Shown here: positions 43 through 63,311 of the stretch, one piece after another | How the letters are laid out: each line of letters opens with the position of its first letter | Position numbering within the stretch: position 1 is the first letter of the stretch | Assembly (NCBI GenBank): GCA_963730605.1 | Contig: CAVSSM010000002.1 | Coordinates: forward strand, 64,001 to 128,000 | DNA: 64,000 nt | Reading direction: 5' to 3' | From: an uncultured Chlamydiae bacterium | Lineage (GTDB): Bacteria; Chlamydiota; Chlamydiia; Chlamydiales; SM23-39 | Notes under the pieces: model-generated | What the model was told of the DNA's origin: nothing | What the model saw: only the letters and a program-made list of their open reading frames with translations | The model's database searches: none | Translations under genes and position numbers: made by a program

Positions 43-1125
43 TCATAAAATAATCCTCCGAATGATGTCGGCCAAGTGGGTTCGTTGCTCATCTTCCGCG
101 TTCGCTTTTCGCAAACGCATTTTTCTCTCTTCCAACTCCTCGATCAGAGTAGATAGTTCATGAGCGATCCTTTCCGCATCGGCCTCTTTTTGATCGATCA
201 GCCGAGCTCCTCCTAAGGCATCCCTCAAGTACTCCCCATTTTTCCTTTGGTGATTTTCGGCTGCGTGAGGATAAGGGATCAAAAGAGCCGGAAGCTCGAA
301 TTGGATCAGCTCGGCGATCGTTCCTGCTCCGCTGCGACAAAGGGCCGCATCGGCTGCGGCATATGCATGCGCCATCTCCTTTTCAAACGGCTTTACGCAT
401 GCAATAATTCCAAGCTTTTCATAGGCCAACCTGACACTTTCCGCCTCGGCTGGGCCGGCCAAGTGCAGCGCCTGGCATGTTTTCCCCAAAGACGATGCAT
501 CTTCGGGGGCCCCTCTGGGGGCCCTGTTTTGCTCGAGCCTTGCAATCGCCTTCGGTGCCGTCTCATTGAGAAACGCGGCTCCTTGAGAGCCTCCAAAAAC
601 CAAAATCACTTTTTTTTCGGGATCGAGCCCATAGAGCTTTTTGGCCTCTTTAGGCGCCAGCCGCTTTAATGCGCTCTTCCAGGGAAGCCAAGAGACAAGG
701 GTTCCTCCGTTATTTGGAAATTGAAAGGCGACCTCAGTAGCGAGCGGCCGGAAGAGGCGAATGACTTTGCCGATCTTACAATTCGCTTCGAAGAGGACGA
801 GCTTTTTTCGGAAAAATGCGGCGGCAAGAAGGACAGGGAATGTATGATAGCTGCCGAAACCGATGACCGCGTCCGGCATGAAATGGCGCATCAGTTGGCA
901 GGCCTGCCAAAACCCAATGCAGGTCCTTGAGAAAAATCCTTTTTTCAAAGGATGGGCGGTAATCTCAGCGAAAGGAATCTTTTCTTTTTCGAAGAAGGGG
1001 CTCGTCCCAAGCTTATGTCCGGCAAAGAGGATTTCGGCGTCGCCCTTCAACTGTTCTCTGAGCTGCTGGGCAGGAAACAAATGTCCGCCCGTCCCTCCTG
1101 CTGCGATCAACACTTTTTTTTTCAC
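43..1125 (-). CDS. murG: MurG glycosyltransferase (GTG start inside the longer ORF 43..1995)
   Basis: IAAGGTGGHLFPA, FGGSQGA, RSGAGT and HQRKN motifs; overlaps ftsW stop; short extra peptide RAPRGAPEDASSLG from a hairpin repeat. Confidence 0.95.
   Translation of the reverse strand: MKKKVLIAAGGTGGHLFPAQQLREQLKGDAEILFAGHKLGTSPFFEKEKIPFAEITAHPLKKGFFSRTCIGFWQACQLMRHFMPDAVIGFGSYHTFPVLLAAAFFRKKLVLFEANCKIGKVIRLFRPLATEVAFQFPNNGGTLVSWLPWKSALKRLAPKEAKKLYGLDPEKKVILVFGGSQGAAFLNETAPKAIARLEQNRAPRGAPEDASSLGKTCQALHLAGPAEAESVRLAYEKLGIIACVKPFEKEMAHAYAAADAALCRSGAGTIAELIQFELPALLIPYPHAAENHQRKNGEYLRDALGGARLIDQKEADAERIAHELSTLIEELEERKMRLRKANAEDEQRTHLADIIRRIIL
480..513 (-). repeat. 34-bp coding mini-hairpin repeat, copy in murG
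   Basis: Reverse complement ggggcccccgaagatgcatcgtctttggggaaaa matches 16871-16904 at 31/34 positions. Confidence 0.85.
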
Positions 1126-2219
1126 GTTTTTTCCAATATCTTTGGTTTGCGCGCGATATCTAGCAAGATGAAAAGAGCGGCGATGTTGACGATGAGTGAT
1201 GTGCCGCCTGCCGAAAAGAACGGAAGCGTCATCCCTTTGCTGGGAAGAAGGCCGGACACGACGCCTAAATTCAAAAATGCTTGGATTGAAATCAGAAATG
1301 TGAGGACGCTTGCGAGGAGAAACCCTCCTGGATCGCGCGCCCGGATCGCGACCAAGAATCCGGCAAAGGAAAAGATCATATAAAGCCCGATGATGCCCAA
1401 AATCCCCACAAAACCGGTTTCTTCCGCGTAGATGGCTGCGATATAATCGTTGCGAGCCTCGGGCAAGTAATTGAGCTTTTGGAGGCTCTCGCCAATGCCT
1501 CTGCCAAAAAGACCTCCCGAGCCGGCGGCGATTTTCGCTTGATGGGGCTGATGCCCTTTCCCTTTCAAATCGAGTTCGGGATGAAGATAGATTTGGATCC
1601 GGCCTTTGACATGAGGCATATGGTAAGCTGCAGCTCCCCCGGCCATCGTGAGCAAGGAAAGCGGCAAGGCCCAATAGATCCATTTCACCCGAGTGAGCCA
1701 AAACAAGACCGGCAGAGTGGAGAGAATGATCGCGGCCGTCCCATTGTCCGGTTGAAGAAGGATGAGGACGAGAGGGAAAACCAAGAGCCCAACGATTTTC
1801 AAGAAGGGGATCAGCAGGATCTCCTTTTGCTGGCAAACCCAGTGGATATAAACGGCCGGTGCCAAGATTTTGATGCATTCGGAGGGCTGGAACGTAAATC
1901 CCCAAAGCCCGATCCAACGCCTCGCCCCATTTACGGTTTGCCCGATCCCAGGAATGAAGAGCAGGATGAGCAGCGCGGTGCCCAGGATAAAACACAAGGC
2001 GCTGTACTGCAGCAACGACTCATAACCCCACCGAACCATCGCAGCTCCTATGAGAATTCCGACAATCCCGTAAAGCGATTGCTTCAAAAGGATTGCATGG
2101 GTATTGATATCAAGCGACCGGTCGATAATCTGAGCCGATGTGGTATTGAAAATCATGAGAAGGCCAAAGGAAAAGAGGATCGCGACGGGCAATGTTAAAA
2201 AAAGGGAAGATTTTGTCAC
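1122..2219 (-). CDS. ftsW: SEDS family peptidoglycan polymerase FtsW
   Basis: NGARRWI, FQPSE, QPDNGT, LPEARNDYI, KGMTLPFFSAGGTS; dcw cluster position. Confidence 0.95.
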   Translation of the reverse strand: MTKSSLFLTLPVAILFSFGLLMIFNTTSAQIIDRSLDINTHAILLKQSLYGIVGILIGAAMVRWGYESLLQYSALCFILGTALLILLFIPGIGQTVNGARRWIGLWGFTFQPSECIKILAPAVYIHWVCQQKEILLIPFLKIVGLLVFPLVLILLQPDNGTAAIILSTLPVLFWLTRVKWIYWALPLSLLTMAGGAAAYHMPHVKGRIQIYLHPELDLKGKGHQPHQAKIAAGSGGLFGRGIGESLQKLNYLPEARNDYIAAIYAEETGFVGILGIIGLYMIFSFAGFLVAIRARDPGGFLLASVLTFLISIQAFLNLGVVSGLLPSKGMTLPFFSAGGTSLIVNIAALFILLDIARKPKILEKT

Positions 2220-2923
2220 TTGATTCTCAGCCGATCTCCCGGTTTCAGCTTGCGGGCCGTCTTTTCATTGAGCCCATTCAATTTGAGAAGCTCATCTACT
2301 TTCATATGATGCTTCATTGCGACCGACCAGGGATTATCTCCTACTTTCATCGTGTAATATTCGGCCGTCTCTAGGCCTAAGGAAATAGCGCTTTTCGGTT
2401 TGGAAATTTCGATCCTTTTCCCCGCCGGAATTTTCAGCCGCTGGCCTATCTTAAGAAAGCTTGTGGGAAGTTGGTTCAATTGGATAATTTCATCCACGCT
2501 CGTCCGGTATTGCTTGGCGAGCTTCTCGAGGCTATCTCCCTTTTGCACTTCAATCTCTGATGCCGTAAGAGGCGTTTGCTTCGCTGGATTTGCAAGAGGG
2601 GCCGGCGCTGGAGGGGGAGCCGAAACGAGAGAAGAAGCCGACGCCGTCTCTACAGGAGGAGAAGATAGTGATGCCGGCGGCAAGGAAAAGGCTACAGGCT
2701 GGCTTGGAGTTGTTGCGAGCGAGTTATCAAGAGCAAGAGGAGCTGGCGGAATCTCCACGGTTTCTTGAAAAAGAGGTTTGGGATCGTTGCGAGAGGCCGC
2801 TTCCTGCCCCATCTCGCTTTCCTGAACAGGAACTTCCCGCATCGTCATCGCGGCGATGAAAAGCACTGTCAAAATGCCCGCGTTGATCATCACGGCTGCC
2901 ACTATGGTCTTTTTCCGATCCAT
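2216..2923 (-). CDS. LysM domain protein (chlamydial NlpD-like), N-terminal TM, two LysM repeats
   Basis: VQKGDSLEKLAK...LKIGQRLKIP and MKVGDNPWSVA...LKPGDRLRI; lies between murD and ftsW. Confidence 0.9.
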   Translation of the reverse strand: MDRKKTIVAAVMINAGILTVLFIAAMTMREVPVQESEMGQEAASRNDPKPLFQETVEIPPAPLALDNSLATTPSQPVAFSLPPASLSSPPVETASASSLVSAPPPAPAPLANPAKQTPLTASEIEVQKGDSLEKLAKQYRTSVDEIIQLNQLPTSFLKIGQRLKIPAGKRIEISKPKSAISLGLETAEYYTMKVGDNPWSVAMKHHMKVDELLKLNGLNEKTARKLKPGDRLRIK

Positions 2924-6587: not shown

Positions 6588-7823
6588 TCACTGGAACTTG
6601 AGGGAAGCCACCGCAATGATGGCAAAAAGAAGGCCGACGATCCAGAAGCGGATCACTACTTTTGTCTCTGGCCATCCTTTATACTCAAAATGGTGGTGGA
6701 GCGGCGCAATGAGAAAAATCCGCTTTTTATTTCGATAGCGGTAGCTGAGCACCTGCAGGATCACCGACAGCGCTTCCGCCACGAAGATGGCCCCTGCGAT
6801 CCCTAAGATGACCTCGCGCCTAAGCAAAACGGCCGAAACCCCGAGAATCCCGCCGAGCGCCAAAGAGCCAGTATCTCCCATGAATACTTGCGCTGGATAG
6901 CCGTTATACCATAAAAAGCCAAGGGCTGCTCCTGCAAGCGCGAAAAGATAAACCGCGATCTCCCCGCTCCCTTCGATGTATAAGATATTCAAATAGCGCG
7001 CGAGGTCAATATGGTTCGAGAGAAAGGCAAAGAGGGCAAGGACCAGCGATACCATCACGAGACAGCCAGCCGCAAGCCCATCGAGCCCATCCGTTAGGTT
7101 GACGGCATTCGACGCCCCCGTGATCACAAAGACGATGATGAAAAACGAAAAAATTTTTAACCAGCCATCGAAAATCCAGACGGGATCTTTCCAAAAAGGG
7201 AGATAGAACTGTTCGATATACTCGCTGGTATCCAGCGTCACCGTGAGGGCTTGAGATTTTTTTTGGGATATTTGGGGCGATGCGGCGATTTGCTCTTTGG
7301 CAGAAGGGGGACGGAAAAATTTCTGGCCCGCGATACCTTGCGTGAATCCGGGACAGAGGAGATAGAGCGCAATGAGAGCGGAAAAGAGCGTTTGGAAAAG
7401 GAACTTCTTTCTTGCCTTCAGCCCTTTGGTGTTTTTATAACAAAGTTTCAGGTAATCATCCCTCGCCCCGAGCGCTCCCAAGCAAAGAGTCGTCAAAAAA
7501 AGGATTAGCGTGAAAGCGCTTTTCAAATCCATCCATAAGATCAAAGAAAGGCCCATCGAAGAGAGGATCAAAATCCCTCCCATCGTAGGAGTGTCTTTCT
7601 TTTTCCCGTGGAGTTCGGCGAGCAGGGGGCACTCCTCAAGGCCGCGGATCGATTGTCCTATTTTGAGTTCATAAAGTTTCTTGATGAACCTAGGGCCCAA
7701 AAGGATCGTAAATAAAAGGGACGTTACGGCAGCCAGAATCATCCGCGTCGAAAAATAGATGAACGCGGCGGGGAGTTTGAGGTGGAAAGCATCGCGGAGC
7801 CACTCGGAAAATAACAGCAGCAT
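6588..7823 (-). CDS. mraY: Phospho-N-acetylmuramoyl-pentapeptide transferase
   Basis: KDTPTMGG, NAVNLTDGLDGL, FMGDTGS, APLHHHFE. Confidence 0.97.
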   Translation of the reverse strand: MLLLFSEWLRDAFHLKLPAAFIYFSTRMILAAVTSLLFTILLGPRFIKKLYELKIGQSIRGLEECPLLAELHGKKKDTPTMGGILILSSMGLSLILWMDLKSAFTLILFLTTLCLGALGARDDYLKLCYKNTKGLKARKKFLFQTLFSALIALYLLCPGFTQGIAGQKFFRPPSAKEQIAASPQISQKKSQALTVTLDTSEYIEQFYLPFWKDPVWIFDGWLKIFSFFIIVFVITGASNAVNLTDGLDGLAAGCLVMVSLVLALFAFLSNHIDLARYLNILYIEGSGEIAVYLFALAGAALGFLWYNGYPAQVFMGDTGSLALGGILGVSAVLLRREVILGIAGAIFVAEALSVILQVLSYRYRNKKRIFLIAPLHHHFEYKGWPETKVVIRFWIVGLLFAIIAVASLKFQ

Positions 7824-7837
7824 ACTGTTCCTATGGA

Positions 7838-12695: not shown

Positions 12696-12869
12696 TATAC
12701 ACAAATGAATTCAAAGGTTAGGAATATACCCAGGAGGCGCCCTCAGTTTGCCCCAGGCGTAGCCGGCGCCGAAGCAGCTCAACTTGCATAAGTTGAGCGA
12801 TGGAGGCGGGAGCAAAATGAGTGGCTGTCCGACGCCGGTAGAACCCAACTTCTGAGTTCATTTGTGTAT
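12696..12869. mobile_element. MITE family A (TATACAC ends), short form
   Basis: Imperfect TIR atacacaaatgaa(t/c)tca; internal hairpin gctcaactt-gcat-aagttgagc; homologous to the reverse complement of 32831-33048. Confidence 0.85.
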
Positions 12870-12874
12870 GTTTC

Positions 12875-12945
12875 GGTGGCATAGCCAAGTGGTAAGGCAG
12901 GGGCCTGCAAAGCCCCCATCCTCGGTTCGAATCCGAGTGCCACCT
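12875..12945 (+). tRNA. tRNA-Cys(GCA)
   Basis: Cloverleaf GGTGGCA..TGCCACC, anticodon loop CTGCAAA, T-loop TTCGAAT; CCA not encoded. Confidence 0.97.
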
Positions 12946-15411: not shown

Positions 15412-15450
15412 CCTCCGCTCTTCTTAATTTGCAGCGGAGGGGTATTTTTT
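15412..15450 (+). terminator. Probable rho-independent terminator of groEL
   Basis: cctccgct...agcggagg stem followed by a T tract. Confidence 0.6.
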
Positions 15451-17317
15451 GTTTCGATTGCTGCTCTTTGTCCCTTTCGCACTTGTATACTGCTCGCAGG
15501 GCAGTATAGCCTCGATGCTCTCCGACGCCGAGTCGATTGGGCAAAAATATGCCCGCGAAGTCGCAAAACGGCCCCCTCCCTCCCTTGCCCCTAAAGTCCA
15601 ACCCCTCCTCGCAGCAACATCCACTTGGCTCTCCCTTGACTTGAAGACTTTGACAGCTCAACCCGGGAAGACGGTGCTCGAAACCCTGGGAAATGAGACT
15701 TTTTGGCAAATCTTGCAAGATCTGGGGATCAATGGAGTTTGGCTGCAGAACCTAAAAGGAGGAACGCGCACCGGCTTTGAAATCGACCCGAAGTGGGGCT
15801 GGGGGTGGCCCGCAATCAAAGATGCGGCTCTATCGCGCGGGACAGTGCTCATCGGCGAATGTGTAGGAGCTGCGACAAGCCCTGGTCTCGATTTCGCACT
15901 CGCCTTGCAAAACGTAGGTCAATATGCGGAAATGTATCATTTGATCGAGATCGATAAAAAGGACTTTCACCTCCTTCCGAAAGTGCCTGTTGGGATGTGC
16001 TTTGCCAATGTGTCTTGGCTGCAACTGGAGAGCTTGTATAAAAAAGGATACGTCCCCGAGGCGGCCCGCTCTTATACCAAGGAAAGCTCCTGGAATGCGA
16101 CGCCCTCAATCCAGGGCTTGGACGGCTGCGTAAGGCGTTGGATCTATCTAAAAGAAAACCAAAACGATCCCGTCCTCGCTTGGCTCTCACCCTCCTTTGC
16201 CGCAGAGAAGATCGCCTCGGCCGATGCGCTGGATTCTATCTACCGGCTCGGCCAAAAAGTGTTAATGATCGATGAGAAAATACCCATTTTCGCCAAGGAG
16301 ACCGCGGCTCTTTGGATCCGGAAAATCGGCGGCTTTACGGTCGCCTCTACAAACGGCACGCTTGGCGATCTGAAAACCGCCCCCACCGATATGGTTGTCG
16401 ACACTCCGACCCAAGCCGCTCTTTTGCATGCGCTGATCGCTGAGGATGCGGAAGCCTTGCGGCTTATCTATAAGCTCTACAGCCAAGATGGGATCGCCCT
16501 CTCCCGGCTCGTGCATGCCTTGGAGCCTTTCGACCGCTTCCCTTGCGACTGGACCGAATTTCTCCTGAATCCGAAAAAGCAGTATCTCTACCGTGAAGAA
16601 AAGATCACCGGCGAGCTGCTCGTTGACCGACTCTTAAGAGAGGATGTTTATAAGCTCAATGGTTTTAGCCCAAATTCGTTCCCCTCGACATGGGCTCACG
16701 CCTGCGCCCTTGCATTTGGGGTTGCAGATCCCAAAGATTTCCAAAAAAAACAACACGAAATTCAAAAAGCCCACCTTCTTTTGGCATTCACCTATGCGAT
16801 GCAGCCCGGTGTTTTTTGTTTCAGCGGATCTGACCTTGTGGGCGCATTGCCAGAGGGAGCGAATCTCCTTGGGGCCCCCAAAGAAGCATCTTCTTTGGGG
16901 AAAAAGGCGCAAATCGATCTCTTCGGACCCAATCGAAACGCCCTCTATCCGAGCCTTCCCTGCCAGATGCAAAGTCCCAAAACATTCGCCTCTGAGCTGA
17001 AAAAAATCCTCGCTGTAAGAGCCTCCAGCAAGATCGCGGCGGGCGAGCTTCTCGAAGTTTGCCCTGTCGATCACTCTGGAACGCTGCTCCTCCTTCACCG
17101 TCTGCCGGAGAGCCGTTTTTTTCATCTTCTCGCGGTGAATTTCAGCCGCTCCCCGGTGCAGGAAAAAATCAAGCTTTCAGGGCTGGAAGATACTTGGGCC
17201 ATCGACCTCATGTCGGGCTTATCCGCTCCAAAGGGGTTCGAGTCCGGCGTCTTCTTTTTCGATCTGCCTCCGCTCACTGGCAAAGTTTTTCTCTTTCAGC
17301 CAAAATACTATGATTGA
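15449..17317 (+). CDS. Pseudomonas stutzeri-type trehalose synthase (TreS)-like GH13 protein, probably exported and degenerate
   Basis: VLETLGNETFWQ, GLDFALA, YHLIEI..DFHLLP, KESSWNAT..GLDGCVRRWIYL, WLSPSFAA, YAMQPGVF..SG.DLVGALP recalled as TreS blocks; N-terminal signal-like sequence. Confidence 0.65.
   Translation: MFRLLLFVPFALVYCSQGSIASMLSDAESIGQKYAREVAKRPPPSLAPKVQPLLAATSTWLSLDLKTLTAQPGKTVLETLGNETFWQILQDLGINGVWLQNLKGGTRTGFEIDPKWGWGWPAIKDAALSRGTVLIGECVGAATSPGLDFALALQNVGQYAEMYHLIEIDKKDFHLLPKVPVGMCFANVSWLQLESLYKKGYVPEAARSYTKESSWNATPSIQGLDGCVRRWIYLKENQNDPVLAWLSPSFAAEKIASADALDSIYRLGQKVLMIDEKIPIFAKETAALWIRKIGGFTVASTNGTLGDLKTAPTDMVVDTPTQAALLHALIAEDAEALRLIYKLYSQDGIALSRLVHALEPFDRFPCDWTEFLLNPKKQYLYREEKITGELLVDRLLREDVYKLNGFSPNSFPSTWAHACALAFGVADPKDFQKKQHEIQKAHLLLAFTYAMQPGVFCFSGSDLVGALPEGANLLGAPKEASSLGKKAQIDLFGPNRNALYPSLPCQMQSPKTFASELKKILAVRASSKIAAGELLEVCPVDHSGTLLLLHRLPESRFFHLLAVNFSRSPVQEKIKLSGLEDTWAIDLMSGLSAPKGFESGVFFFDLPPLTGKVFLFQPKYYD
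16871..16904 (+). repeat. 34-bp coding mini-hairpin repeat
   Basis: ccccaaagaag-cat-cttctttgggg 11-bp stem; encodes GAPKEASSLGK. Confidence 0.85.
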
Positions 17318-25850: not shown

Positions 25851-27567
25851 ATGACAAGCACTAAGTACCAAGTTCTCGCTAGGCGCTACCGGCCAAAAGC
25901 CTTTTCCGAAGTGGTCGGCCAGGAGCCGGTCGTTACGACCTTGAAAAACGCCCTTCGTTTTGATAAGGCAGCTCATGCCTACCTCTTCTGCGGATCGCGC
26001 GGCGTCGGCAAAACCACACTCGCCCGCCTCTTTGCTAAAGCCCTGAATTGCAACAGCTCAGCCGAGCGATTCGAGCCTTGCAACCAGTGCTCCTCATGCC
26101 TGGAGATCATCGCTGGCCAGTCGCTCGACGTCATCGAAATCGACGGCGCATCCAACCGCGGGATCGACGATATCCGCCAGATCAATGAGACGATCGGCTA
26201 CGCCCCGCGCGGGCAAATACAAAATCTACATCATCGACGAAGTGCACATGCTCACCAAGGAGGCGTTCAATGCCCTCCTCAAAACGCTGGAAGAGCCGCC
26301 GGAAAAGGCCAAATTTTTCTTCGCGACGACAGAACCCCATAAAGTCCTCCCCACCATCATAAGCCGCTGCCAACGCTTCGATCTCGGACGGATCCAACTT
26401 TCGCAAATCATAGGAAAACTCGAAGAGATCGCGGCCGACCTCGGGCGCGCGGCCGAACCTGAAGCGCTCCATTTGATCGCAGCTTTTTCCGACGGGTCTC
26501 TCCGCGATGCCGAATCGCTTTTTGATCAAATCCTTTGTTTTGCAGAAAATGCAGTGACAGCGGCCATTGTGAGGACCTCTTTGGGCTTGATTCCTCAGGA
26601 ACATTTCTTCGCTCTTGATCAAGCCTTCTCTGAAGCTAGGGCCGCATTTGCTTTCGAACTCGTCGAATTGCTCTTTGCCTCGGGAAAGGATCTACACCAC
26701 TTCTACGAGCAGCTCATGGAACACGTCCGCAATCTTGCGAGCGCCCGCCTAGTTGGGGAATCTGGGCTCTCCCTCCCTCCAGATCTAAAAGCGAAAACCC
26801 TCCAATCCGCCCGCCTCTATGCTCCTTCCCAATGCCTTTATCTGCTCGAATACCTCTTGCGTCAAGAGAACCACTTGCAGAAAAGCGCTTGCCAAAGGGT
26901 CGCCCTCGAGTCGATCCTCCTGCATTACATCCAAAGCAAGAACCGGATCCCCATAGAGGTCCTGGTCCGACGCCTGACGGAGATGGAAGAAACCCTCAAA
27001 TTGCGAGAACTATCTATACCGGGAGTGATTGAAAAAACGGGAATTGAGCACTGCGGACACTCAAAAACAGTCCGGGGGACTGTTTTTGAGCGAAGCAGCC
27101 CCCCAGAGCTTGAAATCGCAAAACCAGTTCCTGAACCAACGGTTAAGCTCTCACCCCTCCCGCCGCCCAAAATCGAAAGTCCGACTCCATTGCCTGAAAT
27201 CGCAAAACTGATTCCTCAACCAACGCTTAAGACCTCATCTCTCTTACCGCCTAACCTCGAGAATCCGACTTCTGAACCGGAGCCTCAACCGCGGCCTCTT
27301 TCCTTAAAGCCCACGCCATTCAATCCTTTTAAAAAAGCCGAAAAGGCGACAAAACCAGAAGCCGCGAAACCGGAGCCGACGCCCCCCCTAAAAAATGCTG
27401 CATCCCCTTCGGTGCAAGCGAAACCGGATCCTTACCCCAAAAATGGTGCATTTTTGGGGACCCTGGAGCGGGCGTTAGGGCCGATTTCTCTTGATAGCCA
27501 ATCCCGCTACGATACCCTAATGCGGTTCGCTACGGTAGAATTAGAAGGCACACTAAAATTAACGTAA
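25851..27567 (+). CDS. dnaX: DNA polymerase III gamma/tau, with one frameshift near 26205 (likely sequence error)
   Basis: [23 protein letters not shown] in the first frame; [23 protein letters not shown] in the second; extended Pro-rich C-terminus. Confidence 0.93.
27015..27098 (+). mobile_element. In-frame MITE remnant in dnaX (TATACCGGGAG end plus hairpin module)
   Basis: Same end sequence as the 47384 element; 14-bp perfect stem ctcaaaaacagtcc-ggg-ggactgtttttgag inside ctgcggacac..gaagcag. Confidence 0.75.
27112..27279 (+). repeat. Diverged 84-bp (28-aa) tandem duplication in the dnaX linker
   Basis: [25 protein letters not shown] versus [25 protein letters not shown]. Confidence 0.85.
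27432..27465 (-). repeat. Third mini-hairpin repeat, opposite orientation, in dnaX
   Basis: ccccaaaaatg-gtg-catttttgggg 11-bp stem followed by accc; resembles the 480 and 16871 copies. Confidence 0.65.
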
Positions 27568-32830: not shown

Positions 32831-33048
32831 TATACACCAATAACTTCAAAAGTTGGTTTCTGCCTTCGTCGGACAGCCACAATCTTTGAGCCCGCCTGCT
32901 TCCCTAGCAAAAGAGCGAACCCCCGCTCTTTTGCAAGTGTCCGCAGCACTCAACTTTTTCAAGTTGAGCTGCTTCGGCGCCGAAAACCTGGCTCAAATTC
33001 TGGGCACCTCCTTAGCATATTCCCAACTTTTAAAGTCATTTGTGTATA
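32831..33048. mobile_element. MITE family A, long form with an extra hairpin module
   Basis: TA-TACAC...GTGTA-TA ends; imperfect TIR of about 26 bp; colinear with 12696-12869 in reverse orientation. Confidence 0.88.
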
Positions 33049-34337: not shown

Positions 34338-35797
34338 TCCCCGCATATTCACAAGAACATCGATTTTTTTGGCGGCAGCACCCTGCGCTTCTTTTTTCTC
34401 TGACTCTCCTTATCGCCGCAGCCGCAAGCCTTTTTTGGGTAAACCCCTGCAATTGGATCTTCCCGCTTCTCTGGAGCAGCTACCTGATTTTCCTCAAAAA
34501 ATGGCCCATTCTCCTCGTTTTGGCCGCTTGCCTAGCCTATTGCCATTTTCTTCATATAAAATCGCCGCCGTCAGGAAAGTCGGAAGCGTATTTCTCGATC
34601 AAGACTCTACAGCCTCATCAATCCCCTTTTTCAAAAGGCTTTGTTTACAAAGGGACTCTCACAACGAAAGAAGGCTCGGTCCCTTGCGATATTTACACTC
34701 ATGGGCAAAACCCTCCTAAGAGTGCAGCTTGCGATTATTTCGTAGAGGGTAAACTGGATGTTAGGGGCCCTTTTAGCTACGCATTCAAACCTAAAGAATG
34801 GACTGCTGTTGAAAAGAGTTGGAGTCTTGCAGAGTGGCGTTATTCTGCAAAAAAGGCCTATCGAGACTTTTTGGCTGAAAAGTGTAGAGGCTACCCGAGA
34901 GCCGCTCAGTTCCTAGCGGCACTGACCACCGGAGATGTCGACGACAGAGTTCTCAAATACGAATTCGGGCGATTAGGGCTGCAGCATCTTCTGGCCATCT
35001 CCGGATTTCATTTCGGGATCCTGATCGCTTTCGCATCTTTTGTCCTATCGCTGCTGCTTCCCCGTTTTTGGAAACTCCTCTTGCTCCTTTTTAGCCTGAC
35101 TGCCTATTATTTCCTCGTGGGGCCATTTCCTGCCGTGCAAAGAAGCTGGCTGACCGCGATGGCTTACCTTGCCGGGAAACTCATCAACCGGCAAACGAGC
35201 GGCCTGAATCTCCTCGGCCTTGCCTTAGGTGTAGAGATCTGCCTGAACCCCCTTATCGCCTCCAATCTCGGTTTTCAATTCAGTTTTGCAAGCTGCGGCG
35301 GCATCCTCCTCTTCCATCCTTTCTTCGAAAGGAAGCTCCGCACCATCTTGCCGAAACGGTCAAAAATTGAGATTGAGGCCTTGCCATTTTTCGCAAAACA
35401 CCTTTATCTGCTCTCAGGGCTGCTTCGCCAAACGATTGCTCTCGACCTTGCCGTGAATGCGATCCTCCTCCCTCTTCTTCTATATCATTTTCACGTCTTT
35501 CCCCTGCTCAGCCTGCTCTACAATCTCTTTTTTCCCTTCCTCCTCGGGGCCGCCCTCTGCATTCTTCTCCTTGCGCTCACTTTCCATCTCTTGATTCCCA
35601 CTCTCGCCGCTCTTCTCTTTACTGCGGCCTCTTGGTTCACGGAGCAGCTTCTCGATATTGCCGCCTACCCGCCAGCAGCCCTCGATTATCCGATCCTCGT
35701 CGCCAATCTCCCGGCATGGGCGATTCCCTTTTTTCTTTTTGGTCTTTTGGCAATATCTATGAGATTGACAACGCGAATTTCGGATAACAAAGGCTGA
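34334..35797 (+). CDS. comEC: ComEC/Rec2 competence membrane protein
   Basis: GLQHLLAISGFH, PAVQRS, NLGFQFSF; last 8 codons and stop derive from a MITE. Confidence 0.88.
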   Translation: MIPAYSQEHRFFWRQHPALLFSLTLLIAAAASLFWVNPCNWIFPLLWSSYLIFLKKWPILLVLAACLAYCHFLHIKSPPSGKSEAYFSIKTLQPHQSPFSKGFVYKGTLTTKEGSVPCDIYTHGQNPPKSAACDYFVEGKLDVRGPFSYAFKPKEWTAVEKSWSLAEWRYSAKKAYRDFLAEKCRGYPRAAQFLAALTTGDVDDRVLKYEFGRLGLQHLLAISGFHFGILIAFASFVLSLLLPRFWKLLLLLFSLTAYYFLVGPFPAVQRSWLTAMAYLAGKLINRQTSGLNLLGLALGVEICLNPLIASNLGFQFSFASCGGILLFHPFFERKLRTILPKRSKIEIEALPFFAKHLYLLSGLLRQTIALDLAVNAILLPLLLYHFHVFPLLSLLYNLFFPFLLGAALCILLLALTFHLLIPTLAALLFTAASWFTEQLLDIAAYPPAALDYPILVANLPAWAIPFFLFGLLAISMRLTTRISDNKG

Positions 35798-35958
35798 GAT
35801 GCAAAGGGATCGCTCTCTCAGATTTTAAGCGGCTGCGCGAAGCCCATAGCGGAACGCCCCTACGGGCGAGCGCGGCCTTTGGCGCGTTTTGCGCCGCTCC
35901 AAATCTGCCAGCGAGGATTTGCAGATCAGCTCTACTTTGTTATCCGAAACTCGCGTTA
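35769..35958. mobile_element. MITE family D (ACGCG ends), long rod-like palindrome
   Basis: aacgcgaatttcggataacaaag / ctttgttatccgaaactcgcgtt (22/23); nested arms gctgagatgcaaa/tttgcagatcagc and cagattt/aaatctg. Confidence 0.88.
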
Positions 35959-38149: not shown

Positions 38150-38314
38150 TATACCGCGCCCGCTCATCTTGAGTGAATTTTGTTGAGCATCTTTTTTGCT
38201 CCAGCGCATTGCTCGATCTCGTTAACATTGTGCAAGTTGGACTCGATCTCCGCAATGCTACTGGAGCCAAAAATCTGCTGTCAAAATTCACACAACCTAA
38301 GCGGGCGCGGTATA
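38150..38314. mobile_element. MITE family B (TA-TACCG ends), 161 bp plus TA duplication
   Basis: tataccgcgcccgct/agcgggcgcggtata; near-identical inverted copy at 44540-44704. Confidence 0.93.
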
Positions 38315-38968
38315 ACTTGCAAAATCTAGATGAAATTCCTGACGATGATCGCAAATGCTATGCAGCCTACGAGTCCTGCAGTTCAGGTGGTCTCTGTGGG
38401 GGAGGGGGGATATGGGTGTATAGAAAGAAAATTAAACAATATGTACAAAGTCGAGAAAACACGAAAGCCAACCTTTCCAAATTCGGAGGAAGGCGCGAGG
38501 AGAAAATCGACTGTGATGACGCGGTCACGCACCATACTCGCATAAAAAAAGGCCACGGGCCGGAACTCATGGCGTTCGCATAGGGTCACTATGCGGGATT
38601 AACGAAACTCATTCTACAATGCTATAAGAATTATTGACAAGAGCCTTATTTTTGCCGGCGACCGGACTAAGGAATTCCCGCCGGCTCGGAACAGGTTCCT
38701 GGGTTCGAGTCCTAAAATAGATGAAAATCTTCACCAAAACCCCTATTACCCATTACCCGCTCTTCAAAAACTTGGAGCCCCCCTTCCACAAACTCCCTCT
38801 ATACACAAACAACTGGAAAAGTGGTATATTCCTGACTTTCCTATTTTTTAGGTGCGCTGCCTACAAAATTGCGAAATGCCACAACACCAACTCGGGAATC
38901 CCTATGCAAACAGGCTTTATGCTAAGACCTTATTTACCTGACATTGACTTTGAACGATATTAATCCGC

Positions 38969-40006
38969 ATGACCCTCTTCCAATCCATCATCCTAGGGAT
39001 CGTTCAAGGGCTCACCGAATTTTTTCCGGTCAGCTCTTCCGCCCATTTGGGGCTGGCCAAATGGCTTTTGGGGCTGCAGGATGGCGGGCATCTCCTCTAC
39101 TTCGATCTTGTTTGCCATAGTGGAACGCTCCTCGCGCTGATCCTCTTTTTGCGCAGAGACATCGCCGCAACGTTTAAGAACCCTAAAGAGCTTTTCCTTA
39201 TGGCTCTTGCCCTATGCCCTCTTGTCCCTGCTTATTTTCTCATGGAGCCTCTTCGGATCGCGGCCTCCGATCCCGCCTATCTGGGGTTTTTCTTGATGTT
39301 CACTGCACTCCTTCTTTTTTTCGCCTCCATAAAAAAAAGCGAAAATCGACACAAAGTTCGCACCAGTTCATTGCCTAAAGTGGCCTCTTTCACAATTTTC
39401 ACACAGGATTCGGGCGAGCGAGGCAAAGCCGGATTGAAGCGCAGCGTTCCACATGACGAAGCCATAGCCGAAGGCGCTATGGCTGAGGAAGAGGATCGAT
39501 CTGGCTGCGGAATCGAGAAAAAGGTTCGAGGAACCTTTTTCTCGCGGAGCAGATTCGCGAAGCGAATCGGCCCGAAGGGAGCCGCAGCCGGCCGAAACCC
39601 TGTGAAAATTGTGAAAGAGGCCACTAAAGTCAAAGATGTGCTATGTATAGGGTTTATGCAAACGCTGGCCCTTCTTCCCGGAATCTCGCGCAGCGGGTCG
39701 ACGATCGCGACGGGGCGCCTTTTAGGCTGGGATTGGATCGCCGCAGCGCGCTTTTCCTTTCTCCTTGCTACGCCTGCGATCCTAGGGGGGCTGGCTCTAG
39801 AGACCCTGAAACTCCTCCGCGAGCCATCTGCTCACGTCACAGAAGTCTCGGCCTCTTGCTATGCAGCCGGCTTCATCGCATCTTTTGCCATGGGGGTGAC
39901 CTGTGTCCGTTTTATGTTCAAAATCTATGAACTTGGGATCGTGCGCCCGTTTGCGTGGTATTGCCTTGCCGCCGGCCTCTTAGCCTTATGGACGTTCCAT
40001 GCTTAA
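38969..40006 (+). CDS. uppP: Undecaprenyl-diphosphatase with an 83-aa in-frame insertion
   Basis: GIVQGLTEFFPVSSSAH, LPGISRSGSTI, ARFSFLL; 262 aa after removing the insert. Confidence 0.95.
   Translation: MTLFQSIILGIVQGLTEFFPVSSSAHLGLAKWLLGLQDGGHLLYFDLVCHSGTLLALILFLRRDIAATFKNPKELFLMALALCPLVPAYFLMEPLRIAASDPAYLGFFLMFTALLLFFASIKKSENRHKVRTSSLPKVASFTIFTQDSGERGKAGLKRSVPHDEAIAEGAMAEEEDRSGCGIEKKVRGTFFSRSRFAKRIGPKGAAAGRNPVKIVKEATKVKDVLCIGFMQTLALLPGISRSGSTIATGRLLGWDWIAAARFSFLLATPAILGGLALETLKLLREPSAHVTEVSASCYAAGFIASFAMGVTCVRFMFKIYELGIVRPFAWYCLAAGLLALWTFHA
39376..39628. mobile_element. MITE family E inside uppP (245 bp plus 4-bp TAAA direct repeat)
   Basis: Perfect 24-bp TIR gtggcctctttcacaattttcaca at 39380-39403 and 39601-39624; TAAA on both sides. 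Confidence 0.95.
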
Positions 40007-44017: not shown

Positions 44018-44226
44018 GCCGCGTTAGTCTATACTAATTTACTTTTATATTGTCTCCTGAGTTTGTGGACACCCTCTTAGGGAACCAAGGTGTGCGGCCG
44101 CCCTCTTATTGCACCGCCTATTTTTAACGAGGTAGCCCTGATTGCCTGTAAACTTAGGTAACCGGCCAACAACAGCGTTCGGCAGAGCATATAACCGACA
44201 ATCAGGCCTAGCGGGACCGGCGATAT

Positions 44227-44397
44227 TAACCTGAGTTTTGGGTTCATTTGTCTATGAGATTCAAGGATATTTCGAGCATATTTTTGCGCTTTGGAGAACC
44301 GAGAGCAATATCGGGACGAGCATCTTGCCGAGGCGAAAAGTCAAAAAGATGCCGAAAGAAATTGAAGCTCAGGCAAATGAACCCAAAACTCAGGTTA
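44227..44397. mobile_element. MITE family C (TA-ACCTGAG ends)
   Basis: Perfect 24-bp inverted repeat taacctgagttttgggttcatttg including TA; partial copy at 62759-62852. Confidence 0.93.
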
Positions 44398-44959
44398 TTA
44401 GTGTACTGATAGCACCGATGTTATCAGCAAGCGAATCGTTCAAATATGCGGCGCCAAGTGTTGCGATTCCGTAGCTTCGAACTAGAGAGTATTGAGTTGC
44501 CATTGCATGGCTTTTATCCATAGGATGGATCCGTCGAGCTATACTGCGCCTGCTTAGGTTGTGTGAATTTTGACAGCAGATTTTTGGCTCCAGTAGCATT
44601 GCGGAGATCGAGTCCAACTTGCACAATGTTAACGAGATCGAGCAATGCGCTGGAGCAAAAAAGATGCTCAACAAAATTCACTCAAGATGAGCGGGCGCAG
44701 TATAGTTGCCTTGGAGTAAAAGCACGGCCAACTGGCCATGAATACCCCATGGCGTTTAAGGCGCCATCAACAAAACTAACGCAGTTAAAAAAAACCGGAG
44801 AATACTGCATTTTTTCATCCAAACACTGTGACATAATTTTGAAGATATAATTTTTGACAGATTCCATTTGTTGCTTATTCGCCAAGAAATCGACAGTCAA
44901 TTCATTAGTAAATTTCGATTGATGGGCATTTATTGAATCATCGATCACATTGCAGCTAA
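44398..44959 (-). pseudogene. Low-GC gene fragment split by MITE B and bounded by MITEs C and E
   Basis: Removing 163 bp joins ...TPRQL to ARRIHPMDK... in one frame. Confidence 0.75.
44540..44704. mobile_element. MITE family B, second copy
   Basis: TA-TACTG...CAGTA-TA; reverse complement of 38150-38314 with about 3 differences. Confidence 0.93.
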
Positions 44960-45124
44960 CTCGACTTTGTACAATTTTTGGCAAGCAGATCCAGAGGAAG
45001 CGCTCTGCAATTTTTTTCTTTTTTTGCGAAATTCATAGCCGAAGGCGCTATTTATGAGCAAAAAAAGGAAAAAAGGGCCAGCGATTCTCTCGGAGATGCC
45101 GTCACAAAATTGTACAAAGTCGAG
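44960..45124. mobile_element. MITE with CTCGACTTTGTAC ends (family E related)
   Basis: 19-bp TIR ctcgactttgtacaatttt; apical motif catagccgaaggcgctat identical to 39463-39480. Confidence 0.9.
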
Positions 45125-45224: not shown

Positions 45225-45404
45225 TTAGAGGGTGTCTACAAAGTGAGGGAACGCCCGAGTTTTTGGATTATTTTGGCCGCTTTTCGACTTCAAAGCTTGG
45301 GGAGCCATATACTGTTGTCGATATTGCCCCCCAAGTCTTGAATCGAAAATCGGCTCAAAAGAACCGAAAAATCGACAGAACCTCACATTGTAGACACCCT
45401 CTTA
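45225..45404. mobile_element. MITE family F (GAGGGTGTC ends, TTA duplication; IS5/IS1031-like)
   Basis: TTA-gagggtgtctacaaagtgagg ... cctcacattgtagacaccctc-TTA; fragments at 37717, ~44060, 54572 and 55282. Confidence 0.92.
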
Positions 45405-45429: not shown

Positions 45430-45792
45430 ATGGCATCCGAAGAAATTTTGATGGAGATCGATGAGACGTTGGATCGTTTGATCCAGAATGCTGAAGCGAT
45501 CGCCGGCGTCGAAATTGCAGAACTCTCCGTCATCGAGCTCGAGGCGTTTCAGAAGACGCAAGAGAGCCTCATCCAGCATTTGCTCTACACAGATGAGCGG
45601 CTGGAATCGCAGAGACAAGGTCTTTCCAAGGTAGACAAACGATCGGCGAGTTATAAACTCATAGAAAAACGGGCCAAGTTTGAAAAACTAAAATCAACCT
45701 ATCATAAAAATATCTCAGATACGATAGAAAAAAAGCTGCCGATCCTGTCAAAACGTCGGCGCAAGCGCTTCTTGGTAAACTTCAGAACTTAG
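45430..45792 (+). CDS. Hypothetical coiled-coil protein
   Basis: RBS aagga; 120-aa ORF. Confidence 0.7.
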   Translation: MASEEILMEIDETLDRLIQNAEAIAGVEIAELSVIELEAFQKTQESLIQHLLYTDERLESQRQGLSKVDKRSASYKLIEKRAKFEKLKSTYHKNISDTIEKKLPILSKRRRKRFLVNFRT

Positions 45793-48007
45793 CAAGCGAC
45801 CGGAGAGCCTCTTCCAAGTCTTTGACTTTCGGCAGGACTTCTTCTTCCAGATCTTTGCAATAGGGAACGGGACAATCTTTTCCGGCGATGCGGCGCACGG
45901 GAGCGTCGAGGAAGAAAAACGCCTCTTCCGCCACGCGGGCGGCAAGCTCAGCGCCGAATCCGCAGTTGCGGGGCGCTTCATGGACAACGAGGAACTTGCC
46001 CGTTTTCTTGATGGAAGTTAAGACGGAACCAAAATCGAGCGGCACGAGGGTGCGAAGGTCGATCACTTCCACCGAGATCCCCTCTTTGGAAAGAGTGTCT
46101 GCCGCCTCGATCGCCATCAGGATCCCCATGCCCCAGGCGGCGACCGTGACATCGGCGCCGCTTTTCAGAATGGCAGCCTGGCCGAAAGGAAGAAGATCAT
46201 CGGGTCCAGGCTCGGGACGCGCGCAAAAGAGGCGCTGGCGGTAAAGGGCCTTATGTTCGAGGAAAATCACCGGATTTGGATCGCGGATCGCCGTCTTCAA
46301 AAGACGCTTCGCATCAGCCGCGTTGCTGGGGATCGCCACTTTCAGTCCCGGACAATGGGAGAGAAACGCTTCGGTGCTCTGGGAATGGTAAGGTCCGCCC
46401 TGGATGTAGCCGCCATAAGGCATCCGGATCACGACCGGGCAATTCCATACCCCATTGGAGCGGTAATACATGCTCGAGAGTTCATTGAAGAGCTGGTTCA
46501 TCCCTGTCCAGGCATAGTCGGCAAATTGGATCTCCGCAACAGGCTTATGAAAGCCGTCGAATGAAAGCCCGGTCGCAAGAGCGACGATCGTCGATTCGGC
46601 AAGCGGAGTGTTGAAACACCTATTTTCAGTAAAACGGTCGGTCAATGTGCGGGTGATGCCGAATACGCCCCCTTTGCCTCTTGCGACATCTTGGCCAAAG
46701 ACAACGACCCCCGGGTCTCGCTCCATTTCTTCGACGAGAGCGTGATTGAGCGCATCCATCAAGACTATGGCTTCCTTATCGGTAGGCTCGGCGGCTCCCT
46801 CGGAAGGTTGTAGAGCCGGCTCGTAAGGCTTGAACACTTTATCCGCAGCTGAGGCGCGGGAGGGAAAGGGAAGCCGATCTGCGGCTTGAGATGCCTCTTC
46901 TACGCGAACGAAATGGCGGCGGCGCAAAGCTTCTAGCTCTTCTTCAGTAAGATAGTTTTGGTCGAGAAGCCACTTTTCGAAACGGGGGATGGGATCGCGA
47001 AGCTTGTCGGAAGAGCGGAACGTTTCACACTGGTATTTTTTCGGGTCGTCGCTGCTGCTGTGAGGGCTGAGGCGGGGCACTTTTGCAATCACAAGACTCG
47101 GTCCCCCGCCTTGGCGGGCCCGAGCTACCGCCTTTTGGAGCGCATCAGCCGTTTCGATATAGTCGCAGCCGTCGATCTCAAAAACAGAGAGCCCATCGTA
47201 TCCGCGGGCCATTTTGGCGATCGTTCCTCCTGCCGTCTGTTCAGCGACCGGCACCGAAATTGCCCAGCCGTTGTCTTGGATCACAATGACAAGCGGCAAC
47301 TTGTGAAGGCAGGCGAAATTGAGCGTCTCGTGAAAATCGCCCTGAGAGGTCGCACCATCCCCTGCTGATACGTAAACCACTTCTATACCGCGTTCCGTCA
47401 GGTTTTGTGAATTTGGACTGGCTGCGCCTTTGCCTAATCGATTCTGTTTTTCGCCCTTCTCTTCTTGAGCATGTTGCTCAAAATGCGAATCGATTATGCT
47501 TTGGCTCGCAGAGTCCAAATTTACAAAACCTTCCTGCTCCCGGTATATTTTTTCACGCAAAACGGCCGATTTGGCAGTGCCCGCAGCTTGGAGGAACTGC
47601 GAACCTACGACGCTCGACTGACAAGGGATTCTCAAATCTGCTTGAGAAAAATGCTCCGGCATCATCCGCCCGCCCGAATGATTCTCGATATCGCGGGCTA
47701 AAAATGCAGCGAGAATATCGACAGGAGAACATCCAAGGCCGATGGCGAAAGCCCTGTCGCGGTAATAGGGAAATCCCCAGTCTACGCCTGGAGTTAAGGA
47801 AAGTGCTGAAACCGCCCCGATCAGCTCATGGCCGGAGACGGAGAGCTGAAAGGTCGCGCCCTTGTTCTGCCGAACAAGCTTTGCCATCTTGTCGTCCATG
47901 AACCGGGTCAAATGGAGAACTTCAAGGACGCGGAGAACCCGCTCCCGCGAGGTTAGGCTCCCTTTAATTAAATCTTCCAGCAATATGTCGTTTCGGTATA
48001 CATTCAT
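45782..48007 (-). CDS. Fused alpha/beta E1 of (branched-chain) 2-oxoacid dehydrogenase with a 54-aa in-frame insertion
   Basis: GHE, PYYRD, GDGATSQG..DNGWAIS (ThDP motif), HSSSDD, NTPLAES, EIQFADY, GPYHSQ. Confidence 0.95.
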   Translation of the reverse strand: MNVYRNDILLEDLIKGSLTSRERVLRVLEVLHLTRFMDDKMAKLVRQNKGATFQLSVSGHELIGAVSALSLTPGVDWGFPYYRDRAFAIGLGCSPVDILAAFLARDIENHSGGRMMPEHFSQADLRIPCQSSVVGSQFLQAAGTAKSAVLREKIYREQEGFVNLDSASQSIIDSHFEQHAQEEKGEKQNRLGKGAASPNSQNLTERGIEVVYVSAGDGATSQGDFHETLNFACLHKLPLVIVIQDNGWAISVPVAEQTAGGTIAKMARGYDGLSVFEIDGCDYIETADALQKAVARARQGGGPSLVIAKVPRLSPHSSSDDPKKYQCETFRSSDKLRDPIPRFEKWLLDQNYLTEEELEALRRRHFVRVEEASQAADRLPFPSRASAADKVFKPYEPALQPSEGAAEPTDKEAIVLMDALNHALVEEMERDPGVVVFGQDVARGKGGVFGITRTLTDRFTENRCFNTPLAESTIVALATGLSFDGFHKPVAEIQFADYAWTGMNQLFNELSSMYYRSNGVWNCPVVIRMPYGGYIQGGPYHSQSTEAFLSHCPGLKVAIPSNAADAKRLLKTAIRDPNPVIFLEHKALYRQRLFCARPEPGPDDLLPFGQAAILKSGADVTVAAWGMGILMAIEAADTLSKEGISVEVIDLRTLVPLDFGSVLTSIKKTGKFLVVHEAPRNCGFGAELAARVAEEAFFFLDAPVRRIAGKDCPVPYCKDLEEEVLPKVKDLEEALRSLAKF
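47384..47547. mobile_element. MITE (TA-TACCG ends) inside the E1 gene, 160 bp plus TA
   Basis: Imperfect TIR tataccg..aggttttgt(g/a)aatttggact; inner arms aatcgattc/gaatcgatt and ttgagca/tgctcaa. Confidence 0.92.
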
Positions 48008-54571: not shown

Positions 54572-54616
54572 AGAACCGAAAAATCGACAGAACCTCACAT
54601 TGTAGATACCCTCTCA
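54572..54616. mobile_element. Right-end fragment of MITE family F
   Basis: agaaccgaaaaatcgacagaacctcacattgtagataccctc matches 45360-45401 with one mismatch. Confidence 0.88.
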
Positions 54617-54769
54617 GGAATAAATCAAAAAACTGACATAAATTAATCACTAACAGGAAAATTAAAAAATAAAATTAAAATGCAATCAAATTAATTTTGT
54701 TACTTTAAATTAAATACGAAAACAAACTAAAATAAAAGAGTCATAAATATAAATTAAAGGAGTTTTTTC

Positions 54770-55267: not shown

Positions 55268-55281
55268 AAGCGGGTGGCTAT

Positions 55282-55345
55282 GAGGGTGTCTACAAAGTGA
55301 GGGAACGCCCGAGTTTTTGGATTATTTTGGCCGCTTTTCGACTTC
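55282..55345. mobile_element. Left-end fragment of MITE family F
   Basis: 64 bp identical to 45228-45291. Confidence 0.92.
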
Positions 55346-62368: not shown

Positions 62369-62479
62369 CATGTTCAATAAATCGTAAGTATCTAATAATC
62401 AATAATAATTGCAAAATGGCATCGCTTATGCCAAATGGACGAAGAAACGGCAACTAAGGGTGCATTTTGCTTTACCATC

Positions 62480-63180
62480 GATTCTTCGAGGCGCCGGCCG
62501 CCACTTTTTATTTGGCCCATGAGGCACGGGAAAACCGACTTGGCTTAAGGGGAAATATAACAAGGCTCTTTGGCTGGATCTTTTAAATCCGCGCGAGGAG
62601 AGGCTCTACTCCATGAATCCCGAGCTTCTTCGGGAGCGCCTTGAAGCCGTTCCCAATCAGGAAACGGTCGTCATCGATGAGGTGCAGAAAGTCCCAAAAA
62701 TCTTGGATGTCGTCCACGGACTTATCGAAGAGAAAAAGAAAGTGCAGTTCATTTTAACAACCTGAGTTTTGGGTTCATTTGTCTATGAGATTCAAGGATA
62801 TTTCGAGCATATTTTTGCGCTTTGGAGCCGAGAGCAATATCGGGACGAGCATGCGAGCTGGATGGCCTTTGGTTTGGGATTCCTCTTTTCAAAAGACCCA
62901 AGTGGAACTCCACTTCTGGAGGACAAGGGCCGGGGTTGAGGTTGATTTCATCCTCTATGGATCCAACACTTTTTATGCGATCGAAGTAAAAAACGGCAAA
63001 GCGATCACACCTCATGACCTTAGCGGCCTCAAGGAATTCCAGAAAGACTATCCCGAGGCCACCCTCATCTTGATCTATCGAGGCAAAGAGAAAATCAAAC
63101 GCGATGGAATTCTTTGTCTTCCAGCCGAAGAATTCTTCTTGCAGATGAATCTCCTGTCTACTAACCCGCTACGCAAATAG
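62480..63180 (+). pseudogene. AAA_14/DUF4143 ATPase pseudogene
   Basis: FLFGP*GTGKPT (TGA in Walker A), VIDEVQKVP, then a MITE fragment and deletion, then FWRTRAGVEVDF..AIEVK; start approximate. Confidence 0.85.
62759..62852. mobile_element. Left part of MITE family C
   Basis: Nearly identical to 44228-44323. Confidence 0.92.
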
Positions 63181-63311
63181 GAGACAATTTATGCAGGTAA
63201 ACGGAGATTGTTCAGATCAAGGCGCCCGATGCAGGCAACCCCGAAGTGGGTTGTCGAAGCAGGGCAACAACGCAGAGATGGACAATCTACGTCCTGAAGA
63301 AATGTCTCATA
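63178..63311. mobile_element. MITE-like rod palindrome (family G)
   Basis: tag-gagaca..cagg / cctg..tgtctc-ata; agattgt/acaatct; gccc/gggc; caacc/ggttg. Confidence 0.7.

Follow-up and report, generated by a model that had tools for sequence, protein, structure and literature searches.

The window considered here is the 64-kb stretch at positions 64001-128000 of contig CAVSSM010000002.1, which is contig C2 of an assembly (G000; 2.22 Mb, 12 contigs, 83% complete) from an uncultured Chlamydiae bacterium, whose chlamydial identity is indicated by UPF0158 and CT351-family genes. Palindromic elements lie within and between its genes, which include those for UppP, MurG, DnaX, ComEC and a 2-oxoacid dehydrogenase E1 protein. 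These elements are non-coding miniature transposons with inverted-repeat ends (MITEs), of several unrelated families and not one system: the families differ in target duplication, and several share ends with insertion sequences (IS) of different types. It is probable that the families are copied by resident IS and that the copies seen today are those that selection spared.

Palindromic elements in the window

Elements were discovered by a scan for terminal inverted repeats (TIRs), with codon-block shuffles as the control, and the family letters were assigned in this analysis by element ends. The scan gave 11 elements in the window, as against 0-1 in 10 shuffles, and all 11 have a rod-like fold (z = -8 to -15). 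Two relatives served for comparison: G003, the nearest one (87% DNA identity; comparison covering 861 kb of ~1.7 Mb), and G009 (1.33 of ~1.7 Mb covered). The features, in window coordinates, are as follows.

480..525, mini-hairpin unit (~48 bp), in frame in murG (minus strand), adding 16 residues; without counterpart in the G009 MurG
12696..12870, F-type MITE, TATACAC ends, TA target with the right copy changed; lying between genes, 5 nt before tRNA-Cys
16871..16912, mini-hairpin in frame in a TreS-like gene (15449-17317, plus strand), adding 14 residues relative to G003; no target duplication
27015..27107, plus strand, MITE fragment of H8 type (IS630-ended), the left 93 bp, giving 31 residues in frame in dnaX
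27435..27463, degenerate mini-hairpin, in frame in dnaX; spanned by a short-read contig with 0 differences
32831..33048, F-type MITE, TA target; intergenic, just 5' of an NADH dehydrogenase II gene; no promoter or terminator found by a scan of the element
35771..35956, M-type MITE, ACGCGA ends, overlapping the comEC stop codon
37717..37757, C-type MITE fragment (right end), upstream of tRNA-His
38150..38314, G-type MITE, 161 bp + TA = 163, inside a broken Pro-rich gene that is intact in a relative
38799..38822, F-type TIR remnant (repeat family D10)
39376..39628, Q-type MITE of 245 bp with a TAAA duplication, lying in frame in uppP/bacA (38969-40006, plus strand), to which it adds net 249 bp or 83 codons; predicted disordered loop
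44056..44079, C-like TIR remnant (repeat family D6)
44224..44400, A-type MITE, ACCTGAG ends that match those of an IS982-type element, TATTA duplicated
44540..44704, G-type MITE, 161 bp + TA, inverted, 98% like the 38150 copy
44960..45124, B-type MITE, CTCGAC ends, beside a gene remnant; the family's 5-bp duplication is not kept here
45225..45404, C-type MITE, GAGGGTG ends, TTA duplicated, net 177; intergenic
47384..47547, E-type MITE, 160 bp + TA = 162 = 54 codons, in frame in the E1 gene (45782-48007, minus strand)
54572..54619, C-type MITE fragment (right end)
55279..55345, C-type MITE fragment (left end)
62754..62852, A-type MITE fragment (left part), preceding a truncated DUF4143 gene
63159..63330, N-type MITE, ACCCG ends, TACTA/TAATA flanks, net 167, between convergent frames that both end in it

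An earlier note, made from the letters of this DNA, had counted about 11 complete elements; the TIR scan finds exactly 11, ten of them starting within a few bases of the positions given, while the start of the last had to be corrected from 63178 to 63164. The fragments, about eight (27015, 37717, 38799, 44056, 54572, 55279, 62754), and the three mini-hairpins (480, 16871, 27435) are present where the note had placed them, and its net lengths for the copies in uppP (249 bp), the E1 gene (162 bp) and the broken gene (163 bp) are all right. Its estimate of about seven TIR types rises slightly to eight among the 11 elements. The TA duplication that it invoked applies to only 5 of the 11 (12696, with one base changed, 32831, 38150, 44540 and 47384); the other flanks are TTA (45225), TAAA (39376), TATTA (44224) and TACTA/TAATA (63159), with no matching duplication at 35770 and 44960.

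Four MITEs of four families are crowded within 1.2 kb around a gene remnant at 44018-45405, where G003 is without ~1240 bp. Elements also stand directly upstream of both tRNA-Cys (12696-12945) and tRNA-His (37717-37888). The dnaX gene is split by a one-base frameshift near 26205 (frames 25851-26342 and 26047-27567), which is either an assembly error or a real break, and it has an 84-bp tandem duplication (27103-27270) beside its H8 fragment.

Families across the genome and resident insertion sequences

The same scan gave 250 elements genome-wide. With fragments included, and with family 37 of the first clustering dropped as leucine-rich-repeat genes and not MITEs (21 of 361 intervals), there are 340 intervals, which occupy 61 kb or 2.7% of the genome; 286 of them are at least 100 bp long. 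What the earlier note saw in one window extends in the genome to about 286 long copies and 41 stand-alone mini-hairpin loci. A few elements are counted twice because of inverted duplications of 34.8 kb (C1:703152-737986) and 6.6 kb (C10:1-20199), which are likely assembly artefacts.

Ends were curated for 178 of the 250 elements, and an exact target duplication is present in 132 of the 178. Its length is fixed per family: 5 bp in A, B and K, 3 bp (TNA) in C and L, 2 bp, mostly AT, in D and D2, TA in E to J, and 4 bp in Q. The duplications agree with the empty sites of G003. More than 15 end types occur in the genome, and nearest-copy identity is ~96% in H8 and 99-100% in A to D, H8 being the older. 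Six insert peptides had no match in Pfam, and a plasmid search with four window elements gave no match.

The statement that no transposase accompanies the elements holds for the window, in which none was found among 46 proteins scanned, but not for the genome, in which profile matches number 29 for DDE_3, 24 for DDE_Tnp_1, 3 for DDE_Tnp_1_3 and 5 for DUF4096, and none for DDE_Tnp_4 with the query used. The A-family ends, with a 5-bp duplication, are found on an IS982-type element (PF13612, C9:129508-130644), and the D2 ends, with 2-bp duplications, on a 915-bp IS5-type element present in 5 copies (PF13340); a 1121-bp IS630 element (PF13358, 14 copies with the same score) matches the H8 ends at 22 of 26 bases and the F ends at 21 of 26. 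The P ends are carried by a 1243-bp element. A 1363-bp element with a TTA duplication is a weak partner resembling the C, L and O ends, and the partner match of the M family is likewise weak. The last-listed candidates we take to be ISAs1, ISAzo13 and IS1634. One further candidate, an IS with D-family ends at C9:206805-208334, was withdrawn, its left end being a D MITE beside a transposase gene.

Since ends are shared with resident IS, as is the case for RUP and IS630-Spn1 (PMC2229807), the MITEs are likely moved in trans by IS transposases of the same genome. IS630 and IS5 transposases with matching TIRs, for which the earlier note had suggested a search, are present for H8 and F and for D2, respectively. 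The single IS630/TA-type system that it envisaged finds no support, as at least three, and probably five or six, transposase families are involved. Such pairing of families with resident IS makes the mobilisation mechanism directly assayable. Full-length IS also lie inside B-type and G-type MITEs (C1:446919-448335, C3:22954-24135 and C1:551573-553107), and MITEs therefore serve as IS targets.

The mini-hairpin of 36-48 bp is an internal MITE module that also spreads alone, without target duplication. Its 25-bp core occurs 159 times in the genome and 0 times in a shuffle; 92 cores lie inside long elements, and the remaining 67 stand alone in 42 loci, of which one is a contig-end-repeat duplicate, leaving 41. 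Stand-alone copies have no target duplication and often replace a few target bases. In 21 of the 41 loci they are in frame, 14 with homologue support and 7 by coding score alone; one further call was dropped as spurious. Tandem arrays with a 36-bp period reach 10 units, the largest being C5:65883-66231 (10 units) and C7:8767-9077 (9 units), both with a period of ~36 bp and no unique spacers. Elsewhere, two mini-hairpins flank an apparent tRNA gene (C4:67301-67439). The core was found in 9 of 68 genomes of the same taxonomic family and in 0 of 332 others; among 63 scoreable mini loci of other genomes, larger elements account for 40 and long open frames for only 6, the exact-pattern search favouring young copies. 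For Y1 (RAYT) transposases the genome, 83% complete, has one weak, partial match (E 3e-5, 53 of 121 positions).

Copies inside genes and at their edges

Eleven long copies lie inside intact reading frames, 10 of them supported by a homologue that matches on both sides or by a site that is empty at the DNA level, and their hosts include UppP, E1, an E2 subunit, RecD2 and CT351/LptD-like, Wzc-like and LTA-synthase-like proteins. About 11 further long copies begin 1-9 codons after a Met with the frame open through the element, and internal restart is possible for several of these N-terminal copies. At C2:284503, C2:407532 and C1:635793, MITEs with open frames stand 2-5 codons after the Met of predicted signal peptides; the signal there would shift 85-90 residues inward. 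Four element fragments are also in frame, the one in dnaX included. At least three long copies break a gene with homologue evidence (38150, C1:89905 and C1:397990); an initial set of 'broken gene' cases (23 long copies, 4 mini) consisted mostly of shadow frames or of G003 upstream sequence and was rejected. The share of long copies inside intact genes is ~4%, or ~8% with the N-terminal cases, so that the site is non-coding or at the margin of coding sequence for some nine long copies out of ten.

The copies are recent insertions: both flanks are adjacent in G003 for 51 of the 286 long intervals, of which 46 are empty and 5 occupied there, and G003 has its own copies at other sites, one of which adds 57 codons in frame. 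The UppP insert is absent from 28 of the 28 relatives covering the site (29 aligned). The E1 site is cleanly empty in G003, while at the uppP site there a 12-bp piece of the right TIR is left in frame, a scar that may have arisen by deletion between the 4-bp repeats at the hairpin base. Orthologues without the insert, for which the earlier note had suggested looking, exist for UppP, E1, RecD2, DnaX and MurG. Filled, empty and scar states at orthologous sites form a natural series for the rise and erosion of loops of 30-100 residues.

Are the elements built for insertion into proteins? The net length is a multiple of three in only 33 of 132 copies, and the large young families A, B and D almost all lack such lengths, so that a design for multiples of three is rejected. 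The pattern first noted in the window holds, with copies in intact genes adding multiples of three and the 163-bp copy lying in a broken gene; the former have these lengths because the genes are intact, which gives no evidence of design. Stop-free frames occur at about the shuffle level (15 elements, P 0.03-0.58), and the case for a design for open frames is weak at best. The seven in-frame H8 copies differ by 36 replacement changes over 1413 sites and 10 silent changes over 435, a ratio of replacement to silent changes per site (pN/pS) of 1.11, as compared with 0.70 for five other copies. By this measure the peptide of H8, the most gene-prone family, appears to drift neutrally, with no purifying selection seen. 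The lengths and the pN/pS of 1.1 therefore fit a survival filter and not protein design. Accordingly, the protein remodelling after the manner of Rickettsia palindromic elements (RPEs) that the earlier note proposed stands as regards in-frame copies in conserved genes and likeness to RPEs, but not as regards remodelling as a function.

In the process that we favour, insertion would be blind to genes. A copy would survive between genes, on a stop codon rebuilt by the duplication, on a start codon rebuilt likewise (as for the IS5-type D family, in which a new ribosome-binding site would come from the element end), or in frame if it has a stop-free frame and adds a multiple of three overall. Copies of the last sort would form disordered loops of 30-105 residues, which would evolve neutrally and be reduced to short scars by deletions that keep the frame. 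As only one third of deletions would be tolerated in genes, these copies would outlast intergenic ones, and older families would come to look gene-prone. The same survival filter has been described for the Correia elements of Neisseria (PMC2229807). In a structural model of UppP, the core has a predicted local distance difference test score (pLDDT) above 90 and matches the BacA fold (template modelling score 0.84 on the target), whereas residues 133-208 score below 50.

At the 3' edges of genes, the TNA and 5-bp duplications overlap or abut stop codons in 8 of 31, 4 of 22 and 5 of 19 copies, as against 2-4% at matching non-coding sites. At the 5' edges the D and D2 families are distinctive. 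Of their 21 copies with exact duplications, 13 duplicate AT, and 11 of these 13 sit in ATG; in 8 of the 11 the ATG that is rebuilt opens a scored gene, as compared with 8.8% of non-coding ATGs (p 5e-7), a null that is somewhat low because pseudogenes are included. Three of the eight share the start Met with a relative, and one is an internal codon of a broken gene. The D-family TIR has a purine run 6-10 bases before the ATG, which could serve as a ribosome-binding site, and the G003 orthologue of C3:11717 keeps only the TIR end and the ATG. A start-codon bias in the TA families was rejected (0 of 37). In the start-codon family there is a simple way for a selfish element to become required.

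Spread, alternative readings and known systems

Elements of this kind are widespread in Chlamydiales. An F-type element was found in 38 of 102 other genomes of the same taxonomic family. A profile of the E1-type peptide, from the scoring of which genome G117 was left out, matches 41 of the 400 Chlamydiota genomes; these carriers come from 6 families, mostly from the same family (13 of 68) and a second one (f7; 22 of 90), and the peptide sits inside unrelated proteins. In genome G445, 9 of the 16 matches scored (out of 85 candidates) lie in frames of at least 280 residues. A protein search with the E1-type peptide gave 17 carriers; apart from E1 there are 16, and in 6 of these the insert is flanked on both sides by homologous sequence. 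DUF455, FtsX-like, MenD-like and DnaX proteins are among these both-sided carriers; a methyltransferase-HAD linker and a RecQ N-terminus are among the others. The DnaX insert occurs in 5 cluster members, one of which is labelled Rhabdochlamydiaceae by its source. The H8 peptide is seen in 2 of 250 genomes of relatives, and weakly. The exact-pattern matches listed come from records titled Chlamydiae, Chlamydiales and Parachlamydiales, with some titled 'uncultured bacterium' or 'Verrucomicrobia'. Protein-inserting palindromic repeats are thereby extended to a new phylum, in at least 6 of its families, and in genomes of environmental chlamydiae the inserts will lead gene calling and markers based on indels astray.

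A wider proposal would have an order-wide set of MITEs in Chlamydiales that rewrites starts (the IS5-type elements, through a ribosome-binding site) and stops and adds recurrent IS630-type peptide domains, some of them by now fixed and functional (as in DnaX), with the transposases resident. We regard it as rather doubtful. If it were true, genes would not easily be freed from a ribosome-binding site supplied by an IS5-type element, and the movers would still be in the same genomes, which is not shown for the RPEs of Rickettsia.

Several points weigh against the survival-filter reading itself. H8 copies are in frame in 8 of 14 cases, above the ceiling of 27.5% for random TA insertion (p = 0.02), an excess that we would explain by slower erosion inside genes. 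The DnaX insert is kept in the 5 cluster members on different contigs. The start-codon bias of the D family exceeds what a passive filter gives and needs targeting or retention. The low pLDDT in UppP is weak evidence because the insert has no aligned sequences. On the side of the movers, the transposase gene of the IS982-type partner of family A carries one stop, no clear IS partner was found in the genome for families B, K and Q, and a candidate partner for B and K had no matching duplication in 5 of 5 copies.

The first three of these points could also be taken as signs of domestication, in which inserts or ends would have been recruited as functional loops or required ribosome-binding sites and kept by positive or purifying selection. 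D ends rebuild ATG in 8 of the 13 AT-target copies, three with the same start Met in relatives; a TIR end and ATG alone persist at the C3:11717 orthologue; and G000 and G003 both have the mini-hairpin at C6:5383. However, the pN/pS of the in-frame H8 copies, the 46 of 51 testable sites that are empty in a relative of 87% identity, the trimming of inserts as far as the 12-bp uppP scar and the one rebuilt ATG that is internal to a broken gene all speak against such recruitment, and we consider it unlikely.

The elements might instead be silent and leave the genes unchanged: splicing could remove them, ribosomes could bypass them, or part of the DNA population could have lost them by excision. 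The long rod of every element would bring its flanks together, and essential-looking genes (dnaX, murG, E1 and E2) carry inserts. Yet Rfam found only two tRNAs in the window, with no match to an element, a ribozyme or an intron, group I and II structures (as in an IStron or other self-splicing element) included. Copies in intact genes keep the frame without stops, which splicing would not require, and copies inside genes whose length is not a multiple of three break them (38150; C1:89905). Contigs from 4 runs, which drop rare variants, contain no joint that cleanly skips the uppP or E1 insert. We regard silence as very improbable. That the in-frame inserts are artefacts of long-read or metagenomic assembly is scarcely credible: the assembly does have the dnaX frameshift and long inverted duplications at a contig end, but one junction of the uppP insert and one of the E1 insert are spanned by short-read contigs showing 0 differences, a second assembly has the E1 protein with its insert (740 of 741 residues identical, on a 53-kb contig), both of these possibly from the same sample, and related inserts occur in other proteins of other genomes.

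With the survival filter as the preferred reading, the system works, by our comparison, like RPE, Correia and ERIC repeats and is apparently undescribed in Chlamydiota. The earlier note knew of no description for this phylum, and none was found in the literature searched: no paper on MITEs or palindromic inserts in Chlamydiota, nor on a start-codon-targeting MITE, in a coverage outside which most subscription journals and ISfinder lie. Excerpts of a paper on IS expansion in Rhabdochlamydia (PMC9723776) contain neither 'MITE' nor 'palindrom', and those of PMC10969869 have no occurrence of 'chlamyd'.

The RPEs are the closest in kind, being palindromic repeats of 100-300 bp that, in an obligate intracellular bacterium, sit in frame within conserved proteins unrelated to one another, with one recurrent peptide per family (PMC2229807, PMC10969869). 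Here, too, a rod palindrome is found in 11 of 11 elements, and insertion in frame in unrelated conserved proteins with a recurrent peptide is observed. In contrast to RPEs, whose duplication is listed as unknown and whose mobilisation by a transposase is listed as unproven in the review consulted, the present families have clear family-specific duplications and matching resident IS. Their overall in-frame share is 4-8% as against nearly half in RPEs, a level that H8 (8 of 14) and the mini-hairpin (21 of 41) do attain. For Rickettsia Gmk the insert has been shown to be translated; here translation is a prediction. A peptide-level comparison of 6 insert peptides and 8 alignment members revealed 0 matches at E<=10 in NCBIfam, which we assume to hold RPE models.

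Correia/NEMIS, ERIC and RUP, compared by description and not base by base, are also TA-target MITEs, and RUP shares its ends with a resident IS630 (PMC2229807). Correia elements have an optional internal module of 50 bp, the stop-free form of which alone is found fused into genes (PMC2229807), and the TATAC-ended families here similarly have an optional module of 45 bp. Unlike those systems, the TA families here coexist with families of 2-, 3-, 4- and 5-bp targets, and the inserts reach 105 codons. QMITE1 and QMITE2 of Coxiella resemble the present elements in having ~50-80 copies per family and ~1% of the genome of an intracellular bacterium, in overlapping the 3' ends of genes and in being entered by IS (PMC5896051); they differ in that the MITEs here occupy 2.7% of the genome, with more than 15 end types and with inserts in the middle of annotated housekeeping proteins. 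The insert peptides have no match to DUF1658. The mini-hairpin is similar to the GTAG/CGTC repetitive extragenic palindromes of Opitutus terrae and of R. conorii (RPE-4, RPE-6), which are hairpins of 20-40 bp, single or grouped, that occur inside genes and add 10-30 residues (PMC3733652), but no terminal GTAG or CGTC tag is present in the 67 stand-alone copies, and 92 of the 159 cores lie within larger MITEs.

Other repeats and insertions were noticed along the way. In the window, a 1105-residue Pro-rich gene has a 24-bp triple repeat (10730-10805), and MraY (6588-7874) is ~70 residues longer than the family models; the latter was rejected as a repeat, being unique sequence common to G003. Elsewhere in the genome, a 1947-bp repeat (C1:286485-288431) has 3 copies and a frame of 445 residues, presumably a group II intron reverse transcriptase. 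Contig C14 of G009 (locus L153) has a 492-residue insert in a DnaB-like protein, absent in G000, that starts with Cys, ends with His-Asn and is presumably an intein.

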